Below are positions 3,488 to 41,369 of a stretch of DNA of 64,000 nucleotides, in pieces. Below the pieces are notes generated by a model. It was not told the DNA's origin. It saw only the letters and a program-made list of their open reading frames with translations, and did no database searches. This stretch comes from Candidatus Multivoradales bacterium (GTDB lineage Bacteria > Acidobacteriota > Thermoanaerobaculia > Multivoradales > Multivoraceae), in contig CBDCWI010000002.1 in NCBI GenBank assembly GCA_965223325.1, positions 1,152,001 to 1,216,000 of the forward strand, written 5' to 3'. A program made the translations under genes and the position numbers. Position 1 is the first letter of the stretch. Each line of letters opens with the position of its first letter.

Positions 3488-4899
3488 TCTTCACCGAGTT
3501 TCGCTTCCTCGCCTTCTTCGGGCTCGTCCTCGCGGTCTACTGGTCACTCGAAGGCAATCGCCTGCGCAAGATCTGGCTGCTGGCGGCGAGCTATGCGTTC
3601 TACGCCGCCTGGGACTGGCGCTTTTTGTCGCTCATTCTCATCTCGACGCTGGTCGACTACGCGGTAGGCACGCGACTGGCGACAACCGACTCGGAGTCCC
3701 GCCGCCGCGCCCTCCTCCTCGCCAGCCTGGTCACCAACCTCGGGCTACTCGGCTTTTTCAAGTACTTCGGTTTCTTCGTCGACTCGGCGGTCGATCTGGG
3801 TTCATTTCTCGGGTTCTCGCTCAGCCGACCAACGCTCGAGATCGTGTTGCCGGTCGGCATCAGCTTCTACACCTTCCAGACGCTCAGCTACACCATTGAC
3901 GTCTATCGTCGCGGCCTCGAGGCGACGCGCAACCTGCTCGACCTGGCGCTGTTCGTCGCCTTCTTCCCGCAGCTGGTGGCGGGGCCGATCGTGCGCGCTT
4001 CGTACTTCCTGCCGCAGCTGCACGAGGAGCGCCGCTGGCAGAACGTCGCCGCGCGTTCTCACCTGGTCTTGTTCCTCATCGGCTTTGCCAAGAAGGCCTG
4101 CATCTCCGACAACATCTCGCCCTTCGTCGACAGCTACTTCGCCGCCCCGGAGGGCTGGAGCGCAGGGGCCGCGTGGCTAGCGGTGTTGCTCTACGCCATT
4201 CAGATCTACTGCGACTTCTCCGGTTACTCGGACATGGCGATCGCCACCGCTGGACTTCTGGGCTACGACCTGGGACCGAACTTTCGTTCCCCCTACGTCG
4301 CCCTCAACCCGCGGGACTTCTGGCAGCGTTGGCACATCAGCCTATCGACCTGGCTGCGCGACTACCTGTACATCCCACTGGGCGGCAACCGCGGCAGCAC
4401 GATCTTCACTTACCGCAACCTGATGCTCACCATGCTGCTCGGAGGGTTGTGGCACGGGGCCGCCTGGCACTTCGTCGTCTGGGGTTTCCTGCATGGCCTG
4501 GCACTCTGCCTGCACCGGCTGGTCCGTACTGACGGGAAAGAGCAGGGGGCCTCTCCTCTCAAACGCATTGCCTCGACCCTCGCCATGCAGTACTGGGTGT
4601 GCCTGGCGTGGATCTTCTTCCGAGCGGAGAGCTGGGGCGATGCGATGGTCACCGCAAAGGCCTGGTTGTTCTGGAGCAGCCCGGGCTCTCTGACTCTCGA
4701 TGCGCGCTGGTGGTGGTTCATCGCCGCCTTCGCGCTAGCCCACTGGGTGGGCGCTCGCTACGCCAGCACCGATGAACCCTTCCTTCCCGGCGCACGGCTC
4801 CCACAGCCCCTTTTTGCAGCCGCCTACGGCGTCGCCACCGCCATCGTCCTCCTCTTCGTTCAGGTCGACGTACAGCCCTTCATCTACTTCCAGTTCTAG
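3484..4899 (+). CDS. MBOAT family O-acyltransferase (AlgI/PatA/DltB-like)
   Basis: LPVGISFYTFQ, FFPQLVAGPIVR, IYCDFSGYSDMA, FWQRWHISLSTWLRDYLYIPLGG, GLWHGA and C-terminal FIYFQF. Confidence 0.95.
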   Translation: MIFTEFRFLAFFGLVLAVYWSLEGNRLRKIWLLAASYAFYAAWDWRFLSLILISTLVDYAVGTRLATTDSESRRRALLLASLVTNLGLLGFFKYFGFFVDSAVDLGSFLGFSLSRPTLEIVLPVGISFYTFQTLSYTIDVYRRGLEATRNLLDLALFVAFFPQLVAGPIVRASYFLPQLHEERRWQNVAARSHLVLFLIGFAKKACISDNISPFVDSYFAAPEGWSAGAAWLAVLLYAIQIYCDFSGYSDMAIATAGLLGYDLGPNFRSPYVALNPRDFWQRWHISLSTWLRDYLYIPLGGNRGSTIFTYRNLMLTMLLGGLWHGAAWHFVVWGFLHGLALCLHRLVRTDGKEQGASPLKRIASTLAMQYWVCLAWIFFRAESWGDAMVTAKAWLFWSSPGSLTLDARWWWFIAAFALAHWVGARYASTDEPFLPGARLPQPLFAAAYGVATAIVLLFVQVDVQPFIYFQF

Positions 4900-5893
4900 T
4901 GAGGTCCGTGGTTTTCGACCAATGCGCTGCGGACCTTGATTGGGTAGGCGGTGCTGTTGGAATTCCCGCCTCGACGTCTCGGCCTGTCGTGTACCACGGA
5001 CCTCACTAGAGTCACATCTGCGGCGCAAGCGCTCCAAAGCGCGAGCCGCCTTCACTGGCGCTCGCCTTGCAAAAGCTGCCACCGACTTCGGTCGCCTGGC
5101 GCGCGCCGCGGATTCCTGCCTCCGATGGAACCGACCTCGACGCTCACCACTCAACTGCCCCCCGTGGTTTTCGACCAATGCGCTGCGGGCCTTGATTGGG
5201 TAGGCGGTGCTGTTGGAATCCCCACCTCGCCGTCTCGGCCTGTCGTGTACCACGGACCTCACTAGAGTCACATCTGCGGCGCAAGCGCTCCAAAGCGCGA
5301 GCCGCCTTCACTGGCGCTCGCCTTGCAAAAGCTGCCACCGACTTCGGTCGCCTGGCGCGCGCCGCGGATTCCTGCCTCCGATGGAACCGACCTCGACGCT
5401 CACCACTCAACTGCCCCCCGTGGTTTTCGACCAATGCGCTGCGGACCTTGATTGGGTAGGCGGTGCTGTTGGAATCCCCACCTCGCCGTCTCGGCCTGTC
5501 GTGTACCACGGACCTCACTAGAGTCACATCTGCGGCGCAAGCGCTCCAAAGCGCGAGCCGCCTTCACTGGCGCTCGCCTTGCAAAAGCTGCCACCGACTT
5601 CGGTCGCCTGGCGCGCGCCGCGGATTCCTGCCTCCGATGGAACCGACCTCGACGCTCACCACTCAACTGCCCCCCGTGGTTTTCGACCAATGCGCTGCGG
5701 ACCTTGATTGGGTAGGCGGTGCTGTTGGAATTCCCGCCTCGACGTCTCGGCCTGTCGTGTACCACGGACCTCACTAGAGTCACATCTGCGGCGCAAGCGC
5801 TCCAAAGCGCGAGCCGCCTTCACTGGCGCTCGCCTTGCAAAAGCTGCCACCGACTTCGGTCGCCTGGCGCGCGCCGCGGATTCCTGCCTCCGA
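4895..5893. repeat. Tandem array of a 256-bp unit (~3.9 copies); first copy bounded by a perfect 18-bp inverted repeat with CTAG ends
   Basis: CCGTGGTTTTCGACC recurs at 4906, 5162, 5418 and 5674. TCTAGTGAGGTCCGTGGT (4895-4912) is the reverse complement of ACCACGGACCTCACTAGA (4993-5010). Units differ by only a few substitutions. Confidence 0.95.
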
Positions 5894-5937
5894 CTTAACA
5901 CGGAGGCTTCTCTTCCCCGGATCCCAGGACCCTCTTC

Positions 5938-7696: not shown

Positions 7697-7862
7697 CTAG
7701 TACCCCGTACCATTGAAACGGATAGTGGCTGAGCGGATGATCGTGCTCGAGATCAAGGCGTCACGACAGAGGCATATTGGTGATCTGTCGAGGAGTGACA
7801 ACACAGAGATCGAGCGCGAGGACCGCGCAGACGCTGTGCGTTTCAATGGTACGGGGTGCTAG
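7697..7862. mobile_element. 166-bp MITE-like element with 24-bp terminal inverted repeats and CTAG termini
   Basis: CTAGTACCCCGTACCATTGAAACG (7697-7720) vs CGTTTCAATGGTACGGGGTGCTAG (7839-7862), one mismatch; nested internal stems; no credible ORF. Confidence 0.85.
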
Positions 7863-9644: not shown

Positions 9645-10601
9645 ATGCTTTCAAAGTCCAAGATCGAGATTCTCGTTCTGGCCCTGGTCGCTCTGCTGGT
9701 CGCTGTACCGGCAGCAGCGCAAGAAGACGAAGAGTTCCCGCCCAACGCTGAAGCCGGCAAGTGCTACGCCAAGTGCGTCATCCCGGCTCAGTACGAGACC
9801 TACACCGAGCAGGTTCTCAAGAAAGACGCCGCCAAGCGGCTCGAGGTCGTTCCGGCGACCTACGAGACCGTCACCGAGCAGGTCGTCACCCGCGAAGCGT
9901 CCTCACGCCTCGAGGTGGTCCCTGCCCAGTACGAGAACGTCACCGAGCAGGTGATGATCAAGCCTGCCAGCAGCCGGGTCGAGGTCGTTCCGGCGACCTA
10001 CGAGACGGTCACCGAAACCGTCACCGTGTCGCCTGCCAGCACCCGCTGGGAAAAGACCAGGGGCGACGCTTCCTGCCTGTCGGCCAACCCCGAAGATTGC
10101 CGCGTCTGGTGCCTGGTCACCGTTCCGGCAGTCACTCGTACGGTCAGCAAGCGGGTCCTCAAGACCCCGGCCACCACTCGTGAAATCGAGATCCCGGCCG
10201 AGTACAAGACGGTCACCCGTCGCGTCGTCAAGGTTCCGGCTTCGACCCGCACGGTCGAGATCCCGGCCGAGTACGGCACCATCACCAAGACGGTGCTCAA
10301 GAGCCCGGCAACCACTCGCGAGATCGAGATCCCGGCCGAGTACCAGACGGTCACCCGCACACGTCAGGTGTCGGCCGCTGGTTCGACCGAGTGGCGTGAG
10401 GTCCTCTGCGCTGCCGACATCACCCAGGCACGCATTCGTACCATCCAGCGCGCGCTCAAAGAACGCGGCTACGACCCGGGGCCGATCGACAACATCCTCG
10501 GCTCCCAGACCCGCGCCGCGCTCCTGCGCTTCCAGCGCGACAACAAGCTGCCGGAAGGCAGTCTTGACCTCGAAACTCTAAAGGCGCTCGGCGTCAACTG
10601 A
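9645..10601 (+). CDS. Secreted beta-repeat protein with C-terminal peptidoglycan-binding domain
   Basis: GGAGG RBS before ATG 9645; signal peptide; ~24-aa repeats (VPATYETVTEQV / IPAEYKTVTRRV); PG_binding_1-like IQRALKERGYDPGPIDNILGSQTRAALLRFQ. Confidence 0.88.
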   Translation: MLSKSKIEILVLALVALLVAVPAAAQEDEEFPPNAEAGKCYAKCVIPAQYETYTEQVLKKDAAKRLEVVPATYETVTEQVVTREASSRLEVVPAQYENVTEQVMIKPASSRVEVVPATYETVTETVTVSPASTRWEKTRGDASCLSANPEDCRVWCLVTVPAVTRTVSKRVLKTPATTREIEIPAEYKTVTRRVVKVPASTRTVEIPAEYGTITKTVLKSPATTREIEIPAEYQTVTRTRQVSAAGSTEWREVLCAADITQARIRTIQRALKERGYDPGPIDNILGSQTRAALLRFQRDNKLPEGSLDLETLKALGVN

Positions 10602-38668: not shown

Positions 38669-39550
38669 ATGAATCTCCGCCTCAAGAACCATCTCGCCCG
38701 CGCCGCTGTGGCGCTCCTGGTCGCAGCCAGCCTCCCCGCCCTCGCTCTCGCCCACGAAGAAGCAGAGGAGAGGGAGTTCGGTTGGTTCGATACCGGCGAG
38801 CTCGCCTTCGTCCAGACCGACGGCAACTCCGAGGCCAGCAGCCTTTCGCTGCGCAACAACCTGAGCCGCGTCTGGGAAGACGCCACCTTCACACTCAACC
38901 TCGGTGCTCTGCGCGCCGAGTCGACTGACATCCGACGCTTCGCCGTCGGAACTCCCGACGCCTTCGCCATCCGCGAGGAGAAGCGCTCCGACCTGACCGC
39001 CGAGAACTACTTCATCCGCGGACGCTACGACCGGCAGATCACCGACTCGCTCTTCTGGTACGCCGGCGCCGGTTGGGAGAAGAACGAGTTCGCAGGCTTC
39101 GACAGCCGAACCGTGCTCACAGCCGGTGTCGGCAACATCTGGTTCGAAGAAGACGCCGCGCGGTGGCGCACCTGGTACGGCGCCACCTGGACCTCCCAGG
39201 ACGACATCGTCCCCAACCCCGAGATCGACGACAGCTTCATTGGCCTCCAGTTCGGCTCCGACTACGCCCGCCAGCTCGGCGCCAACTCGCTCTACGAGAG
39301 CCTGCTCGTCGTCGACCTCAACATCGACGAAACCGAAGACTGGCGTGCCGACTTCGTCAACTCCATCACCACCAGCATGACCAACCACCTCGCCCTCAAA
39401 GTCAGCCTGCAGATTCTGTACGACAACCTGCCGGCCCTCGAAGCCGTCGAGCTCATCGACATCACCGGCGCCTCGACCGGCACCGAAGTCTTCGGTTCGC
39501 TGGACGAGATGGACACCCTCCTGACCGCCTCGCTGGTCGTTAGTTTCTAG
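38669..39550 (+). CDS. DUF481 outer-membrane beta-barrel protein
   Basis: Signal peptide; TDGNSE motif, TAENY, amphipathic strands, terminal Phe (LVVSF). Confidence 0.85.
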   Translation: MNLRLKNHLARAAVALLVAASLPALALAHEEAEEREFGWFDTGELAFVQTDGNSEASSLSLRNNLSRVWEDATFTLNLGALRAESTDIRRFAVGTPDAFAIREEKRSDLTAENYFIRGRYDRQITDSLFWYAGAGWEKNEFAGFDSRTVLTAGVGNIWFEEDAARWRTWYGATWTSQDDIVPNPEIDDSFIGLQFGSDYARQLGANSLYESLLVVDLNIDETEDWRADFVNSITTSMTNHLALKVSLQILYDNLPALEAVELIDITGASTGTEVFGSLDEMDTLLTASLVVSF

Positions 39551-39552
39551 GG

Positions 39553-39951
39553 GTCTAGCGTTCCCGTGGTTTGCGGCCTTTGGGACGCGCCCGTGTTGGT
39601 GTGAGGTGGTGTTGATGGAGAGACGACCCAGCGATCGAGGTTCGTCGTTACCACGGGAACGCTAGACGTCACATCGGCCGCGCAAGCGGTCCAACGCGCG
39701 GGCCGCCGCCGCAGGCGAACGCCCTGTACCTGCGATCGGCACACTGCAAGGGGCCGGCGCGCGCGGCGGATTCTGGGCTCCGATCGAACGACGGCTCCGA
39801 AGCCAGCGATGCGAAGACCGCCGCGCAGGAGGAGGAGCTGCCCGAATGGCACACGACCGTTGGGGACGCGCCCGTGTTGGTGAGAGGTGGTGTTGATGGA
39901 GAGACGATCCAGCGATCGAGGCTCGTCGTTACCACGGGAACGCTAGACGTC
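39553..39951. repeat. Diverged relative of the 4.9-kb repeat: IR-bounded module + structured module + partial second copy (period ~281 bp)
   Basis: GTCTAGCGTTCCCGTGGT (39553-39570) / ACCACGGGAACGCTAGAC (39650-39667) perfect IR; ~90 bp repeated at 39863-39951; GTCACATC...GCGCAAGCG.TCCAA.GCGCG.GCCGCC...GGCGCGCGC.GCGGATTC shared with 5011-5115. Confidence 0.9.
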
Positions 39952-40055
39952 GTCGAAACCGGAAATCAACAAATTCAAAGATTTCTATTCTTCGTGCTAA
40001 GATAGACGCGGTCCGAGCCCCACACCCACCGACCCCCCGGCCCGCCTACCGCCCG

Positions 40056-41369
40056 ATGAAAACCATCCTCCTCGTCGACTTTGACCGCGAGCTCCTGGAG
40101 TCGCAGGCGCGGGCCTTCCGCGCCCACCGCACTGCCTGGGAGCTCCTGCTTGCCGAGAATGGCCACCAAGCGGTCCAGGTTCTCGAGAACCGCGCGATCG
40201 ACCTCCTCTTCACGGCCCTCGAGATGCCGGTCATGGACGGTTTCGAGCTCATGAGTCACGTCCTGCGCCTGCAGCCTGATGTCCCCGTCGTCATGTTCGC
40301 ACCCGCCGAGAGCGGCCTGGCGCCCGAAACGCTCGACATCCCCGGCACCTGTGACGTGCTCGTCAAACCGCTCTCGACCGACGGTGCGTTCAACTATGCA
40401 CGCACACACTTCGCCCGCGGACTTCGCGGCCACCTGAGCGGCATCAGCCTCTCCGGTGCCCTTCAGCTTCTCCACCTCGAGCAGCGCAGCTGCACGGTCA
40501 CGGTTCGCAAGAAGGGTCAGGTCGGCACCTTCGAACTGCAAGATGGAGTCCTCACGCACGCTTCCGTCGGAGGTCTCAAAGGCGAGGAAGCTGCGATCCA
40601 GATCCTCACCTGGCGCCACCCCGACCTCGAAGTCGTGGGACTCGCCACCAGCCCGTTTCACACCGTCAGTCAGCCGCTCGAAGGTCTGTTGATGGAAGCC
40701 GCGCGCCAGCACGACGAGTCGCGTCGTGACCTGCCCGACCTCTCCAGCCGGTGGCTGGCGAAAACCGAAGGCTCGAGCTACATCCCGCCGTTCGAACTCC
40801 GGCCGAAGCAAAGCCGCACCGTGCGCAGCCTGCTCCAGCGCGTCATGATGATCGAGGGCACCCTCGGCGTCGGCCTGATGGACACCCGCTCGGCCTCCTG
40901 CGTCATGAGCGAGAGCGTCCGACTGAAGGAGTCTTTCGACGAGCAGGCGGCCCAGACCGTCATGCTGGTGCGCGATCGTCGCTACGGGCTCGGAGCCGAC
41001 TCGGGCGATCCGAGTCTCGATCGAATGGTCGTGGAGCTGCACCGCCACATCGAGGTGTTTCAAAGCCTGGAGGGCGTTCCGCTCGGCCTCTACCTCCTGG
41101 GACGCCGGCACCTGACCGTGCCATCAGAGGCGATCGAAACCATCGAGCGCATCGCCGCCAAGATCAGCGACGTGCTGGTCGACCCCGATCCCGCCCAAAG
41201 CAACCTGCCGCGGCTGATCAAGACCGCACCGGCCAACTCAGACAAGAGCCGTGAGCGACCAACCGACTCGACGACGAGAAAGCGCACCGACCCTCCCGCC
41301 GGAGAGAACGCTTCAGTCGTTGACGAGGACGACCCGGTTCCGCCCCTGACGGCTCGCAACCGTCAGTGA
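40056..41369 (+). CDS. Atypical receiver + DUF4388 (PATAN-like) protein with C-terminal roadblock-like region
   Basis: ILLVD...LEMPVMDGFEL; GHLSGISLSGALQLLHLEQRSCTV...GEEAAIQILTW. Confidence 0.85.
   Translation: MKTILLVDFDRELLESQARAFRAHRTAWELLLAENGHQAVQVLENRAIDLLFTALEMPVMDGFELMSHVLRLQPDVPVVMFAPAESGLAPETLDIPGTCDVLVKPLSTDGAFNYARTHFARGLRGHLSGISLSGALQLLHLEQRSCTVTVRKKGQVGTFELQDGVLTHASVGGLKGEEAAIQILTWRHPDLEVVGLATSPFHTVSQPLEGLLMEAARQHDESRRDLPDLSSRWLAKTEGSSYIPPFELRPKQSRTVRSLLQRVMMIEGTLGVGLMDTRSASCVMSESVRLKESFDEQAAQTVMLVRDRRYGLGADSGDPSLDRMVVELHRHIEVFQSLEGVPLGLYLLGRRHLTVPSEAIETIERIAAKISDVLVDPDPAQSNLPRLIKTAPANSDKSRERPTDSTTRKRTDPPAGENASVVDEDDPVPPLTARNRQ

Follow-up and report, generated by a model that had tools for sequence, protein, structure and literature searches.

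Behind the stop codon of a DUF481-family gene, positions 39,553 to 39,951 of the window (the whole 64,000-nt stretch of DNA analysed here) hold a hairpin, a second structured module and a partial repeat of the hairpin. The question raised by this locus is what kind of element it is, and how its inverted arms come to be perfectly paired. In the first-pass annotation, it was described as a diverged relative of another locus in the window, built as module A, a GTCAC motif with module B, and a second A copy without the left arm, with a TAG stop codon just upstream. These coordinates and this anatomy hold.

Structure of the locus

The features of the locus are as follows.

38669..39550, + strand: upstream host gene of the DUF481 family (open reading frame; PF04338, E = 1.2e-32), with its native TAG stop at 39548-39550
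39553..39570, + strand: left arm of module A, GTCTAGCGTTCCCGTGGT, with 18 of 18 bases paired with 39650-39667
39571..39649, + strand: loop of module A, 79 nt, G/T-rich on the + strand and homologous to the loop of the first locus (z = 3.8)
39650..39667, + strand: right arm of module A, ACCACGGGAACGCTAGAC, paired with 39553-39570
39668..39797, + strand: GTCAC motif and module B (nhmmer E = 2.7e-41 for the whole unit; covariance model R1, 101 bits at 39669-39797)
39676..39693, - strand: empty group II intron homing site, GGACCGCTTG^CGCGGCC, with a predicted cut between 39683 and 39682
39798..39859, + strand: locus-specific linker from B to the second A copy, outside the family profile
39860..39951, + strand: partial second A copy without the left arm, 96% identical to 39579-39670 (nhmmer model positions 11-106)

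The perfect self-complementarity noted earlier for the arms is thus exact at this locus, over all 18 pairs and across the 79-nt loop. The sequence GTCACATC starts at 39668, and module B has a closing stem of its own, formed by GCCGCGC (39677-39683) and GCGCGGC (39761-39767). The right arm of the partial second A copy lies at 39931-39948, and the whole A-B-A' arrangement is bounded by two arms and CTAG. The DUF481 protein ends in ..VVSF*, and this C-terminus is equal in length to that in four relatives.

The other locus in the window, referred to here as the first locus, is larger.

4895..5893, + strand: hairpin A followed by 3.86 tandem A'+B units with a period of 256 bp
4895-4912 and 4993-5010, + strand: arms of hairpin A

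The CTAG of its hairpin contains the TAG stop (4897-4899) of an MBOAT gene, whose PF03062 domain falls within 4000-4899 of the window, and R1 matches occur at 5012-5139, 5268-5395, 5524-5651 and 5780-5907. A global alignment of the two window units has 168 identical positions out of 254 and scores 62, compared with -37 +/- 6.6 for 300 dinucleotide shuffles (z = 15). Aligned part by part, the A loop gives z = 3.8 and module B gives z = 10.3, and none of the 300 shuffles reached the values of the whole unit, the A loop or B. The proposal that the two loci belong to one family was to fall if they aligned no better than shuffled controls, and it is upheld by this comparison.

A genome-wide family

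When all copies in the genome were collected, nhmmer returned 199 matches to the unit in 66 loci, and the two window loci are part of this larger family. The R1 model of module B has at least 84 matches in the genome, at 83-131 bits. The unit consists of module A, with an 18-bp perfect stem and an 80-nt loop (3-4 nt in minimal forms), and of GTCAC with module B, which is about 105 nt long and has its own closing stem of 9-11 bp. The orientation of A relative to B is the same in all full units. Fifty-five hairpins in the genome with a stem of 13 bp or more have GTGGT...ACCAC at its inner end; on both strands together, GTGGT gave 110 hairpin matches, against 2-8 for each of six control pentamers. 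A B-type match lies just downstream of 45 of these 55 hairpins, and copies are 55-68% identical between loci, in keeping with the earlier view of A+B as an old unit. Independent occurrence of A and B, which would speak against such a unit, was encountered to a weak degree, as B-only, part-of-B and A-only arrays (loci 23, 62 and 36). The B material at loci 23 and 62 consists of partial local duplications inside loci that open with an A hairpin. At locus 55, B directly follows a CTAG stop, and locus 44 consists of a palindrome alone, CTAGTGAGG joined to CCTCACTAG.

Local amplification has turned each locus into a tandem array with junctions of its own. Most loci are such arrays, with 2-7 copies and periods of about 128-360 bp, and the junction phase is different in every locus; the array unit of locus 36 includes 14 nt of the 3' end of a gene. 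The array units contain no open reading frames and their periods are not multiples of 3. Arrays of this kind may have grown by replication slippage or by unequal exchange at the structured repeats. Spurious open reading frames arise across the repeat arrays and are a problem for annotation.

Pairing and divergence of the arms

Stems of at least 14 bp were present in 52 of 63 first units, with a median of 17-18 bp. Among 1013 arm pairs there were 19 mismatches (98% Watson-Crick), of which 3 were G-T and 8 were A-C. Pairwise identity between loci was 0.46-0.50 for the variable arms, 0.55 for the loop and 0.94 for the GTGG/CCAC core. The co-variation proposed for the arms from two loci is borne out by RNAalifold, in which the variable stem columns display both-sided changes in 8-15 of 28 sequences while one-sided changes are almost absent. 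In the closing stem of B, a G-C to C-G swap was present in 9 of 28 sequences. These two closing stems are the only ones supported by RNAalifold, and the interior of the unit, folded on both strands, was no better than shuffles (mean z about -0.5).

The first-pass annotation had further suggested that the pairing is selected or is regenerated at insertion. Regeneration at insertion is not supported: the arms have diverged like the loop (46-50% against 55% identity) and yet are 98% complementary, which calls for continuing maintenance rather than a single event. Five loci with the common arm TAGCGAGGGGCG differ in the 2 nt before TAG (TC, GG, TG, AC and TC), and each variant is matched after CTA. 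In arrays 9, 36, 57 and 11, the gene-proximal hairpin retains 12-13 of 13 outer pairs, whereas among the internal copies that carry a left arm most have 9-12 and one has 4. A perfect first hairpin with less perfect internal copies fits selection on the first hairpin better than mutational perfecting.

CTAG and CCGTGGT/ACCACGG had been regarded as invariant motifs and as candidate recognition or cleavage sites. Across the genome, the inner motif, (C)GTGG(T)/(A)CCAC(G), hardly varies (94% pairwise identity), and GTGGT/ACCAC remains plausible as a recognition site, as it stays at the stem tip with a 3-nt loop just as with an 82-nt loop. CTAG, on the other hand, is not invariant; GTAG, TTAG, TAA and TGA heads also occur, and their complement is always present in the right arm.

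Position relative to stop codons

Distance and orientation to stop codons were scored with gene positions from a crude caller based on open reading frames and codon usage. The unit is co-oriented with the upstream gene in 59 of 66 loci, and the contexts of the 66 loci are same/same (31), convergent (28), divergent (4) and opposite/opposite (3). As a rule the hairpin begins 1-2 nt ahead of the upstream gene's stop, and the usual order within the stem is 2 nt, the stop codon, 8 variable nt and GTGGT. In 34 of the 44 loci that could be evaluated, the stop ends at stem offset 3 or 4. The stops in these 44 stems are TAG (36), TGA (6) and TAA (2), with a genome-wide TAG share of 37%. The host genes are functionally unrelated and include those for IMP dehydrogenase (IMPDH), argininosuccinate synthase, a class II tRNA synthetase, a TonB receptor, a permease, MBOAT and DUF481 proteins, and others.

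At two loci, the paired bases include the last codon of the host gene and its native stop. At locus 2 the protein ends in ..KIYP*, just as in five relatives, with CG-TGA and TCA-CG as pairing partners; at locus 22, where the C-terminus matches that of three relatives in length, GG-TAA is paired with TTA-CC. Pairing covers at least 2 nt before the stop in 26 of 44 loci, compared with about 6% expected by chance. The proteins at loci 11 and 12 fall short of those in relatives by 1-3 residues, and thus the stop may be provided by the repeat itself in some copies instead of preceding it. A search for orthologues for locus 15 returned nothing.

Stop-embedded hairpins as a general trait of the genome were also considered and rejected; when a perfect arm of 10 nt or more beginning at the stop was required, only 5 genes per start offset (-3 to 0) were found outside the family, and several of these are unrecognised minimal members of it. 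The tetranucleotide CTAG is 4.5-fold under-represented in the genome, and 792 of 2333 non-genic CTAG sites are at stops. A resident 166-bp miniature inverted-repeat element (MITE), also present in the window, is flanked by CTAG in 33 of 33 full copies, 23 of which touch a stop codon.

Distribution outside the genome

In 40 relatives, BLAST with the unit gave three short matches, two in coding sequence and a third of 24 nt, and R1 gave none in the same 40 apart from one match of 28.5 bits. An exact 19-mer from the core of B had 50 single matches in genome_contigs and one match in each of 86 stretches in metagenome_contigs; these scans may exclude records of the window's own genome. When R1 was run over 100 of the 136 19-mer loci, the four matches obtained, at about 22 bits, lay around the seeded word, and thus no relatives were found. 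Contigs from four sequencing runs yielded the same strain alone, broken at the repeats, and contained no empty site. Repeat arrays of this type break short-read assemblies. In the literature searched, no paper describing the combination of features of the hairpin A + B repeat was found. On this sampling of sequences, the family is so far known from one bacterium and appears to be lineage-specific.

Nature and maintenance of the repeat

The best explanation, with a probability of roughly 0.5, is a non-coding mosaic repeat, specific to this lineage and of the REP/BIME/MITE kind, in which the arms are kept paired at the DNA level. Such a repeat could have spread by insertion of its TAG-bearing end at or beside stop codons, in the manner of the CTAG-specific 166-bp MITE. 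The arms would then be kept identical by copying within the palindrome, either template switching or intra-hairpin conversion, and the same copying would extend the pairing outward into the last codon of the host. The GTGGT/ACCAC stem tip may be read by a protein in folded form. No transposase, recombinase or autonomous relative with hairpin A ends was found in the genome, and mobility is thus deduced from dispersal alone. A simple TAG or CTAG target does not account for the 8 of 44 heads that are TGA or TAA, for which a mosaic repeat of this kind needs a later change of the stop codon with compensation. The family provides about 50 natural replicates of long palindromes that have drifted and yet are perfectly paired, with absorbed host-coded bases, and concerted evolution of palindromes, by template switching or by selection, is directly measurable within one genome.

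It is also possible, with a good deal less confidence, that the gene-proximal hairpin is a functional cis element of the mRNA 3' end. Its very stable stem, which opens within the last codon and the stop codon, would influence translation termination, mRNA decay or transcription termination, with the strength of the effect set by array copy number, and the repeat family would have been domesticated instead of being selfish DNA alone. The sense orientation in 59 of 66 loci, the fixed geometry relative to the stop codon and the four arrays with a perfect first hairpin and imperfect internal left-arm copies are all consistent with this. In Escherichia coli, translation is lowered by REPs that lie within about 15 nt of a stop codon, which also counts in its favour. 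GTAG-type REPs are reported to be mostly downstream of genes, plausibly transcribed and able to supply TAG stops (PMC3733652). However, G-U pairs are not tolerated in the stems (3 G-T against 8 A-C mismatches in 1013 pairs), there is no T-run after the stem and no terminator-like site is predicted inside the element. Neither an interior fold nor an Rfam family was found for the unit, the host genes have no common function, and the repeat was not found in any of the 40 relatives searched, which argues against a conserved regulatory role. A role as intrinsic terminator was rejected, the right arm being followed by (A)GTCAC... with no T-run and the loop usually being about 80 nt; a terminator scan of 39400-40100 gave its sole terminator-like match inside the DUF481 gene. 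Rfam at gathering score had no match in the window, and at E <= 5 the best sub-threshold match at the first locus was to an unrelated IRES model (20.6 bits against 60). Whether the hairpins inside the last codons of the IMP dehydrogenase, argininosuccinate synthase and tRNA synthetase genes set expression is testable.

A third reading, considered unlikely, is that the repeat is anchored to stop codons as such, the distal arm being written from the last bases and the stop of the host gene, either at integration or by a hairpin-copying activity. If stop-anchored writing did occur, each gene would gain a bespoke perfect hairpin beginning inside its final codon, which would imply either a new integration or repair chemistry (a target-templated inverted arm) or a new coupling of termination to 3'-end structure; in the latter case, array copy number would be a tuning knob.

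Mobilization of the hairpin as single-stranded DNA by one of the HUH tyrosine (Y1) transposases of the genome, like that of REPINs by RAYTs or of TIR repeats by TIRYTs, is somewhat more doubtful. The enzyme would read the folded GTGGT/ACCAC stem and cut at the (C/G)TAG tag. GTAG REPs, BIMEs and REPINs resemble the present family in being intergenic, GC-rich, hairpin-forming and mostly downstream of genes, in having a (G/C)TAG head that can be the TAG stop of a gene, in forming composite arrays and in being targets of other mobile elements, and RAYT is reported to bind single-stranded REP and to cut the GTAG motif (PMC3733652). The genome contains Y1 transposase genes, with 28 PF01797 matches, one RAYT-like gene (NF047646, 66.8 bits, below the cut-off of 80) and a TIR-flanked Y1 element of about 1.5 kb in 7 copies at 90-100% identity. 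The stems are strictly Watson-Crick with a GTAG or CTAG head, and a GTAG-type terminal tag able to supply a TAG stop is present, the head being CTAG, GTAG or TTAG in most loci and the stop within the stem TAG in 36 of 44. In contrast, the repeat on the flanks of the RAYT-like gene (L069 1390-2208) is a different one, with CCCGGGCG 11-mers and a 50-nt tail, so that a REPtron, a RAYT gene flanked by the same repeats, was not found in the genome. The multicopy Y1 element is bounded by unrelated 60-nt TIRs of its own, and 1 of 66 loci adjoins a Y1 gene, which is at chance level. Plus- and minus-strand loci, as judged by eye, are interleaved along both contigs. A REP is a palindrome of 20-40 bp, whereas the unit here has 18-bp arms, an 80-nt loop and a 105-nt B module; REPs and REPINs are near-identical within a genome, whereas these arms differ between loci, are not self-palindromic and are 46-50% identical in their variable part. 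Unlike those of REPs, the arrays are head-to-tail local duplications with locus-specific periods.

More doubtful again is that module A, or A-B-A', is a classical MITE moved by cut and paste through a DDE transposase that targets TA or CTAG. The element would then be related to, and older than, the 166-bp CTAG-flanked MITE, and B would be passenger DNA. Correia and ERIC-type elements are bacterial MITEs with TA or CTAG targets. Bacterial MITEs, including the 166-bp element, likewise have inverted arms, CTAG ends, overlap with stops and tens of dispersed copies, and the unit has terminal inverted repeats, of 17-18 bp in 52 of 63 first units. CTAG occurs at both ends of A in about half of the loci, A-B-A' in the second window locus is bounded by arms and CTAG, the 166-bp MITE has the same stop-codon bias, and loci 55 and 44 could be empty sites or excision remnants. 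The flanks, however, are inverted complements (GG-TAG...CTA-CC) rather than direct duplications, the right end of A+B has no defined duplication, and TGA heads lack TA. Terminal repeats read by a transposase should be constant, whereas the outer 8 nt vary freely here, and A has a fixed orientation to B. No DDE_3 gene (IS630-type, PF13358), the cognate transposase searched for, was found in the genome, and none of the 55 GTGGT-type hairpins brackets a transposase gene. The family also differs from the 166-bp MITE in its co-varying outer arms, its fixed gene orientation (59 of 66, against both orientations), its tandem amplification and its age, with copies 55-68% identical compared with 96-99%.

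It is very improbable that the units are attC-like recombination sites (dispersed cassette sites) or structured small-RNA genes: an integron integrase is encoded in the genome (TIGR02249, 422.7 bits, cut-off 265) and the units combine conserved structure with variable sequence beside stop codons, but the 8 attC-like repeats of the resident integron (spacing 458-674 nt) have another consensus (..AACAAC..GAACCCGCG..CGCTTCGC..), attC sites have a GTTRRRY-type core, R boxes and bulged bases whereas these stems are perfect, with no bulges, spacer or GTTRRRY-type core, the array units have no open reading frames and no fixed junction, and a small RNA is opposed by the lack of an Rfam match, of covarying interior helices and of a stable fold (z about -0.5).

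Mycobacterial MIRU-type VNTRs, which are 40-100 bp long and contain small open reading frames overlapping the neighbouring stop and start codons, are alike in occupying dozens of intergenic loci as short tandem arrays abutting gene ends. The units described here differ in being 128-360 bp long, in periods that are not divisible by 3 and in having a long perfect hairpin first.

A group II intron in module B

Module B is the homing site of a group II intron present in identical copies. The intron (RF02005, 180.6 bits; TIGR04416, 342 bits) is 1.9 kb long and has no endonuclease domain. Its 12 insertions are at one fixed point in B, all antisense to the unit, and at 11 of the 12 occupied sites the junction is GGACCGCTTG followed by GATACG. 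About 90 B homing sites are empty, the second window locus among them; the 10-nt 5' exon at 39676..39693 is that of the 11 occupied junctions, and the site is unoccupied. The host-coded bases paired into the stem, the genome-wide family and this intron had been missed in the first-pass annotation.

Homing to multicopy safe sites, such as IS elements, REPs, terminators and attC, is similar in that an intron with no endonuclease domain is present here in 12 identical copies at one point. In Pseudomonas putida, 2 of 9 intron copies are associated with REPs (PMC1525189), whereas all 12 copies mapped in the arrays here are in one repeat family. In contrast to homing at terminators or attC, the site here is inside B, at the edge of the closing stem, and is set by the 10-nt 5' exon. 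The intron may use B as a multicopy site at which insertion is harmless. An intron living almost wholly on one repeat family is a clean system for the study of homing and host tolerance. Group II introns specific for attC also insert antisense to the cassette gene, as this intron does to the unit.

Structure of the unit at the two loci

The repeat unit consists of a hairpin module A (two arms and a loop), followed by GTCAC and a module B. At window 39553-39951 the first-pass annotation had described A, B and a second A copy lacking its left arm, all behind a DUF481 gene (window 38669-39550; PF04338, E=1.2e-32), and the sequence agrees with this anatomy. The DUF481 C-terminus is native, and the element begins immediately past the TAG stop at 39548-39550.

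Features behind the DUF481 gene (window coordinates)
39553-39570: left arm of A, 18 nt, GTCTAGCGTTCCCGTGGT, beginning three bases past the DUF481 TAG
39650-39667: right arm of A, pairing perfectly with 39553-39570 across a 79-nt loop
from 39668: GTCACATC, directly after the right arm of A
to about 39797: module B, conserved, after GTCACATC
62 nt: linker between module B and the second A copy
39860-39951: second A copy, without left arm, 96% identity to 39579-39670

The first locus carries 3.86 tandem copies of a 256-bp unit (window 4906-5893), preceded by a left arm whose CTAG holds the TAG stop of an MBOAT-family gene. The proposed homology of the two loci stands against shuffled controls: the two window units are identical at 168 of 254 positions, with an alignment score 15 SD above 300 dinucleotide shuffles, and in separate tests the A loop (z=3.8) and module B (z=10.3) were each significant alone. 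Elsewhere in the window, diverged 69-nt tandem repeats (9781-10357; 61-88% identical) look in-frame within a coding region.

The genome-wide family

The host genome comprises 6.69 Mb in two contigs at 64% G+C, of which the window is G000:C2:1152001-1216000. Three rounds of nhmmer from one unit (E<=1e-3) gave 108, 193 and 199 hits, the last representing 66 numbered loci across the whole genome. Tandem arrays of 2-7 units with periods of about 128 to 360 bp were found at most loci. Because the unit-to-unit junction lies at a different point at every locus, and the repeated unit at locus 36 takes in 14 nt from the 3' end of the upstream gene, the arrays arose by local duplication and not through a site-specific process. 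The view of A and B as one unit holds at the level of loci, where a B-type match lies within 130 nt downstream of 45 of the 55 GTGGT-type hairpins in the genome. Within some arrays the repeated segment is limited to all or part of B (loci 23 and 62) or to A (locus 36). In about a dozen loci a further small module, a hairpin of the form CCCCCC...GGGGGG, separates the A hairpin from B (e.g. contig G000:C2:510650-510700 and C2:3512438-3512460), and the family is therefore a mosaic.

Position at gene ends

Gene positions were taken from a purpose-made ORF and codon-usage caller (4725 genes, 87% coverage), which is crude and underlies all gene-position counts. Distance and orientation to stop codons, which the first-pass annotation had proposed to score, proved regular: the unit is co-oriented with the upstream gene in 59 of 66 loci, and where a stop could be assigned (44 loci), its last base falls at stem position 3 or 4 in 34 cases, so that the stem begins 1-2 nt inside the last sense codon. 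The gene contexts are co-directional in 31 loci, convergent in 28, divergent in 4 and opposite in 3. Among first, gene-proximal units, the stem reaches at least 14 bp in 52 of 63 (median 17-18) and the loop about 78-82 nt; in minimal forms the loop shrinks to 3-4 nt, with the geometry and the GTGGT/ACCAC tip unchanged. The stops at the 44 evaluable loci are TAG (36), TGA (6) and TAA (2), and TAG makes up 37% of stops genome-wide (1745/4725, crude gene calls), a high share at 64% G+C. Perfect hairpins beginning at a stop codon outside the family are rare in the genome, several being unrecognised minimal members. The host genes have no common theme: they include IMP dehydrogenase, argininosuccinate synthase, a class II tRNA synthetase, an amidase, a TonB-dependent receptor, a permease, a pilin-like protein, GNAT, a TPR protein, MBOAT and DUF481.

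A classical 166-bp MITE in the same genome served as an internal control.

MITE in the window
7697-7862: MITE, 166 bp, 40-nt inverted ends, CTAG on both sides

Its 33 full copies (92-100% identical, plus fragments) are all flanked by CTAG, and 23 of them touch or overlap a stop codon, in either orientation. CTAG is 4.5-fold under-represented in the genome (4857 found, about 22000 expected), and a third of non-genic CTAG sites lie at stops. Preference for a TAG-containing word and selection against hits within genes are thus enough for placement at stop codons. The A+B family differs from this MITE in four respects: fixed orientation, arms that vary and co-vary, age and tandem growth.

Two further observations concern hairpins at stops. 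At start offsets of +7 to +13 from the first base of the stop, about 20 genes in the whole genome are followed by a perfect arm of 10 nt or more, which suggests yet another gene-end repeat family. In a relative of another genus (stretch L014, G010:C5), a short perfect hairpin of unrelated sequence begins at the TGA stop of the DUF481 ortholog, C-TGA-GCGGGCTGCGAGC ... GCTCGCAGCCCGC-TCA-G; hairpins with an embedded stop may have a wider spread in the host's bacterial family.

Paired arms and host-coded bases

The perfect self-complementarity of arms that differ between loci, first noted in the window, extends almost intact across the genome, with 19 mismatches among 1013 stem pairs. Only 3 of these are G-T against 8 A-C, so there is no wobble tolerance of the RNA-stem type on either strand.

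Between-locus pairwise identity
Variable arm part: 46-50%
A loop: 55%
Module B: 68%
GTGG/CCAC core: 94%

Over 28 loci, RNAalifold counted 8-15 sequences with changes on both sides at each variable stem column, and essentially none with a change on one side only. From these changes and the identities it follows that the arms drift at about the neutral rate yet remain complementary. A single insertion event is insufficient for this; either strong selection on pairing or copying of one arm from the other is needed. Of the earlier suggestion that terminal pairing is selected or regenerated at insertion, the second part is therefore lost as a single event, and selection survives as one of two options.

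Pairing also takes in bases of the host gene. The arm TAGCGAGGGGCG is common to five loci behind different genes, where the two bases before TAG are TC, GG, TG, AC and TC, each pair matched by the two bases past CTA in the right arm. At locus 2 a tRNA-synthetase-family protein ends in ..KIYP before the stop, as in five relatives, which makes the TGA native; here the left arm is CG-TGA-TCTGAGGC-GTGGT, and ...TCA-CG stands at the end of the right arm. The TonB-receptor gene at locus 22 stops at the length seen in three relatives, and its GG-TAA is paired with TTA-CC. The proteins at loci 11 and 12 fall 1-3 residues short of their counterparts in relatives, and the C-terminus at locus 21 is variable; at all three the TAG may have been brought by the element. 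Pairing includes two or more bases before the stop in 26 of 44 loci, where chance would give about 6%.

A group II intron in module B

Module B is interrupted at a single point in twelve loci by an insertion of 1852-2111 bp.

Intron in module B
L001 980-2890 (G000:C2:2708380-2710290): group II intron, about 1.9 kb; 11 further copies

The intron matches RF02005 (180.6 bits) and encodes a 521-aa reverse transcriptase/maturase (TIGR04416, 342 bits), in which Pfam detected no endonuclease domain. All twelve are antisense to the unit, and hence to the upstream gene, and at eleven of them the boundary reads GGACCGCTTG/GATACG. Genome-wide, 14 intron 5' ends were counted, and 90 copies of the 11-nt site stand empty, one of them in the B behind DUF481 (about window 39676-39693). 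Over the stretches compared the intron sequence does not differ from copy to copy, while the flanks are about 70% alike, which indicates that the intron invaded pre-existing B modules. Its start, GATACG, departs from the usual GUGYG, and the CCCCCC...GGGGGG hairpin also flanks the intron at two loci.

Proposed origin

The A+B family is most likely a mosaic repeat of the REP/BIME/MITE kind, either selfish or domesticated to a slight degree at most. Spread would have placed a TAG-bearing hairpin end at or beside stop codons, and arm identity would be maintained by copying inside the palindrome. An established route of mutation is template switching at quasi-palindromes. Such copying would push pairing outward as far as the constrained GTCAC motif, which would account both for the fixed stem length of 18 bp and for the host bases taken into it. 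The structured DNA may promote slippage and unequal exchange, giving arrays, and the intron could use B as a multicopy site without harm. GTAG REPs are described as lying mostly downstream of genes, with ends that often provide a TAG stop, and RAYT as cleaving the GTAG motif (PMC3733652); REPs are recorded as IS targets, and two of nine copies of a P. putida group II intron as REP-associated (PMC1525189).

Four arrays speak against mutation alone and for a possible functional role of the gene-proximal hairpin: their first hairpin is perfect, and of the internal copies with a left arm most have 9-12 of 13 outer pairs and one has 4. Both readings may hold together.

Candidate identities and distribution

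No Rfam family matched, the A and B interiors folded as RNA no better than shuffles on either strand, and a T-run after the stem is absent. BLAST with the unit and a covariance model of B did not find the family in 40 relatives, including one same-genus genome; the few weak matches inspected were coding sequence or seeded chance matches. Exact-word scans of public genome and metagenome collections gave single chance matches only. As judged by these similarity searches, the family was not found outside its host among the genomes and collections covered.

Resident mobile systems
L069 (G000:C1:1305900-1306900): RAYT-like gene, single, 272 aa, HUH motif
G000:C2:4455000-4487000 and G000:C1:2126000-2144000 (e.g. 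L070 1146-2683): Y1 elements, inverted ends of about 60 nt
L236 13261-19774 (G000:C2:3807261-3813774): chromosomal integron, integrase TIGR02249, 422.7 bits

The Y1 (HUH) transposase domain has 28 matches in the genome, many of them in a multicopy 1.5-kb element whose copies cluster towards one end of each contig; this element is similar to the TIR-associated tyrosine (Y1) transposases described in PMC3733652, and its own inverted ends speak against it as the family's partner. The same holds for the RAYT-like gene, as its flanks carry another repeat: the same direct repeat on both sides (L069 1300-1400 and 2215-2330), with runs of a CCCGGG-containing 11-mer and a 50-nt tail. No IS630-type transposase was found in the genome. 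Integron attC sites were dismissed because the resident integron's own attC-like repeats (at least eight, spaced 458-674 nt, downstream of the integrase on the same strand) have a different consensus. A 134-bp tandem repeat lies immediately upstream of this integron (L236 12468-12968).
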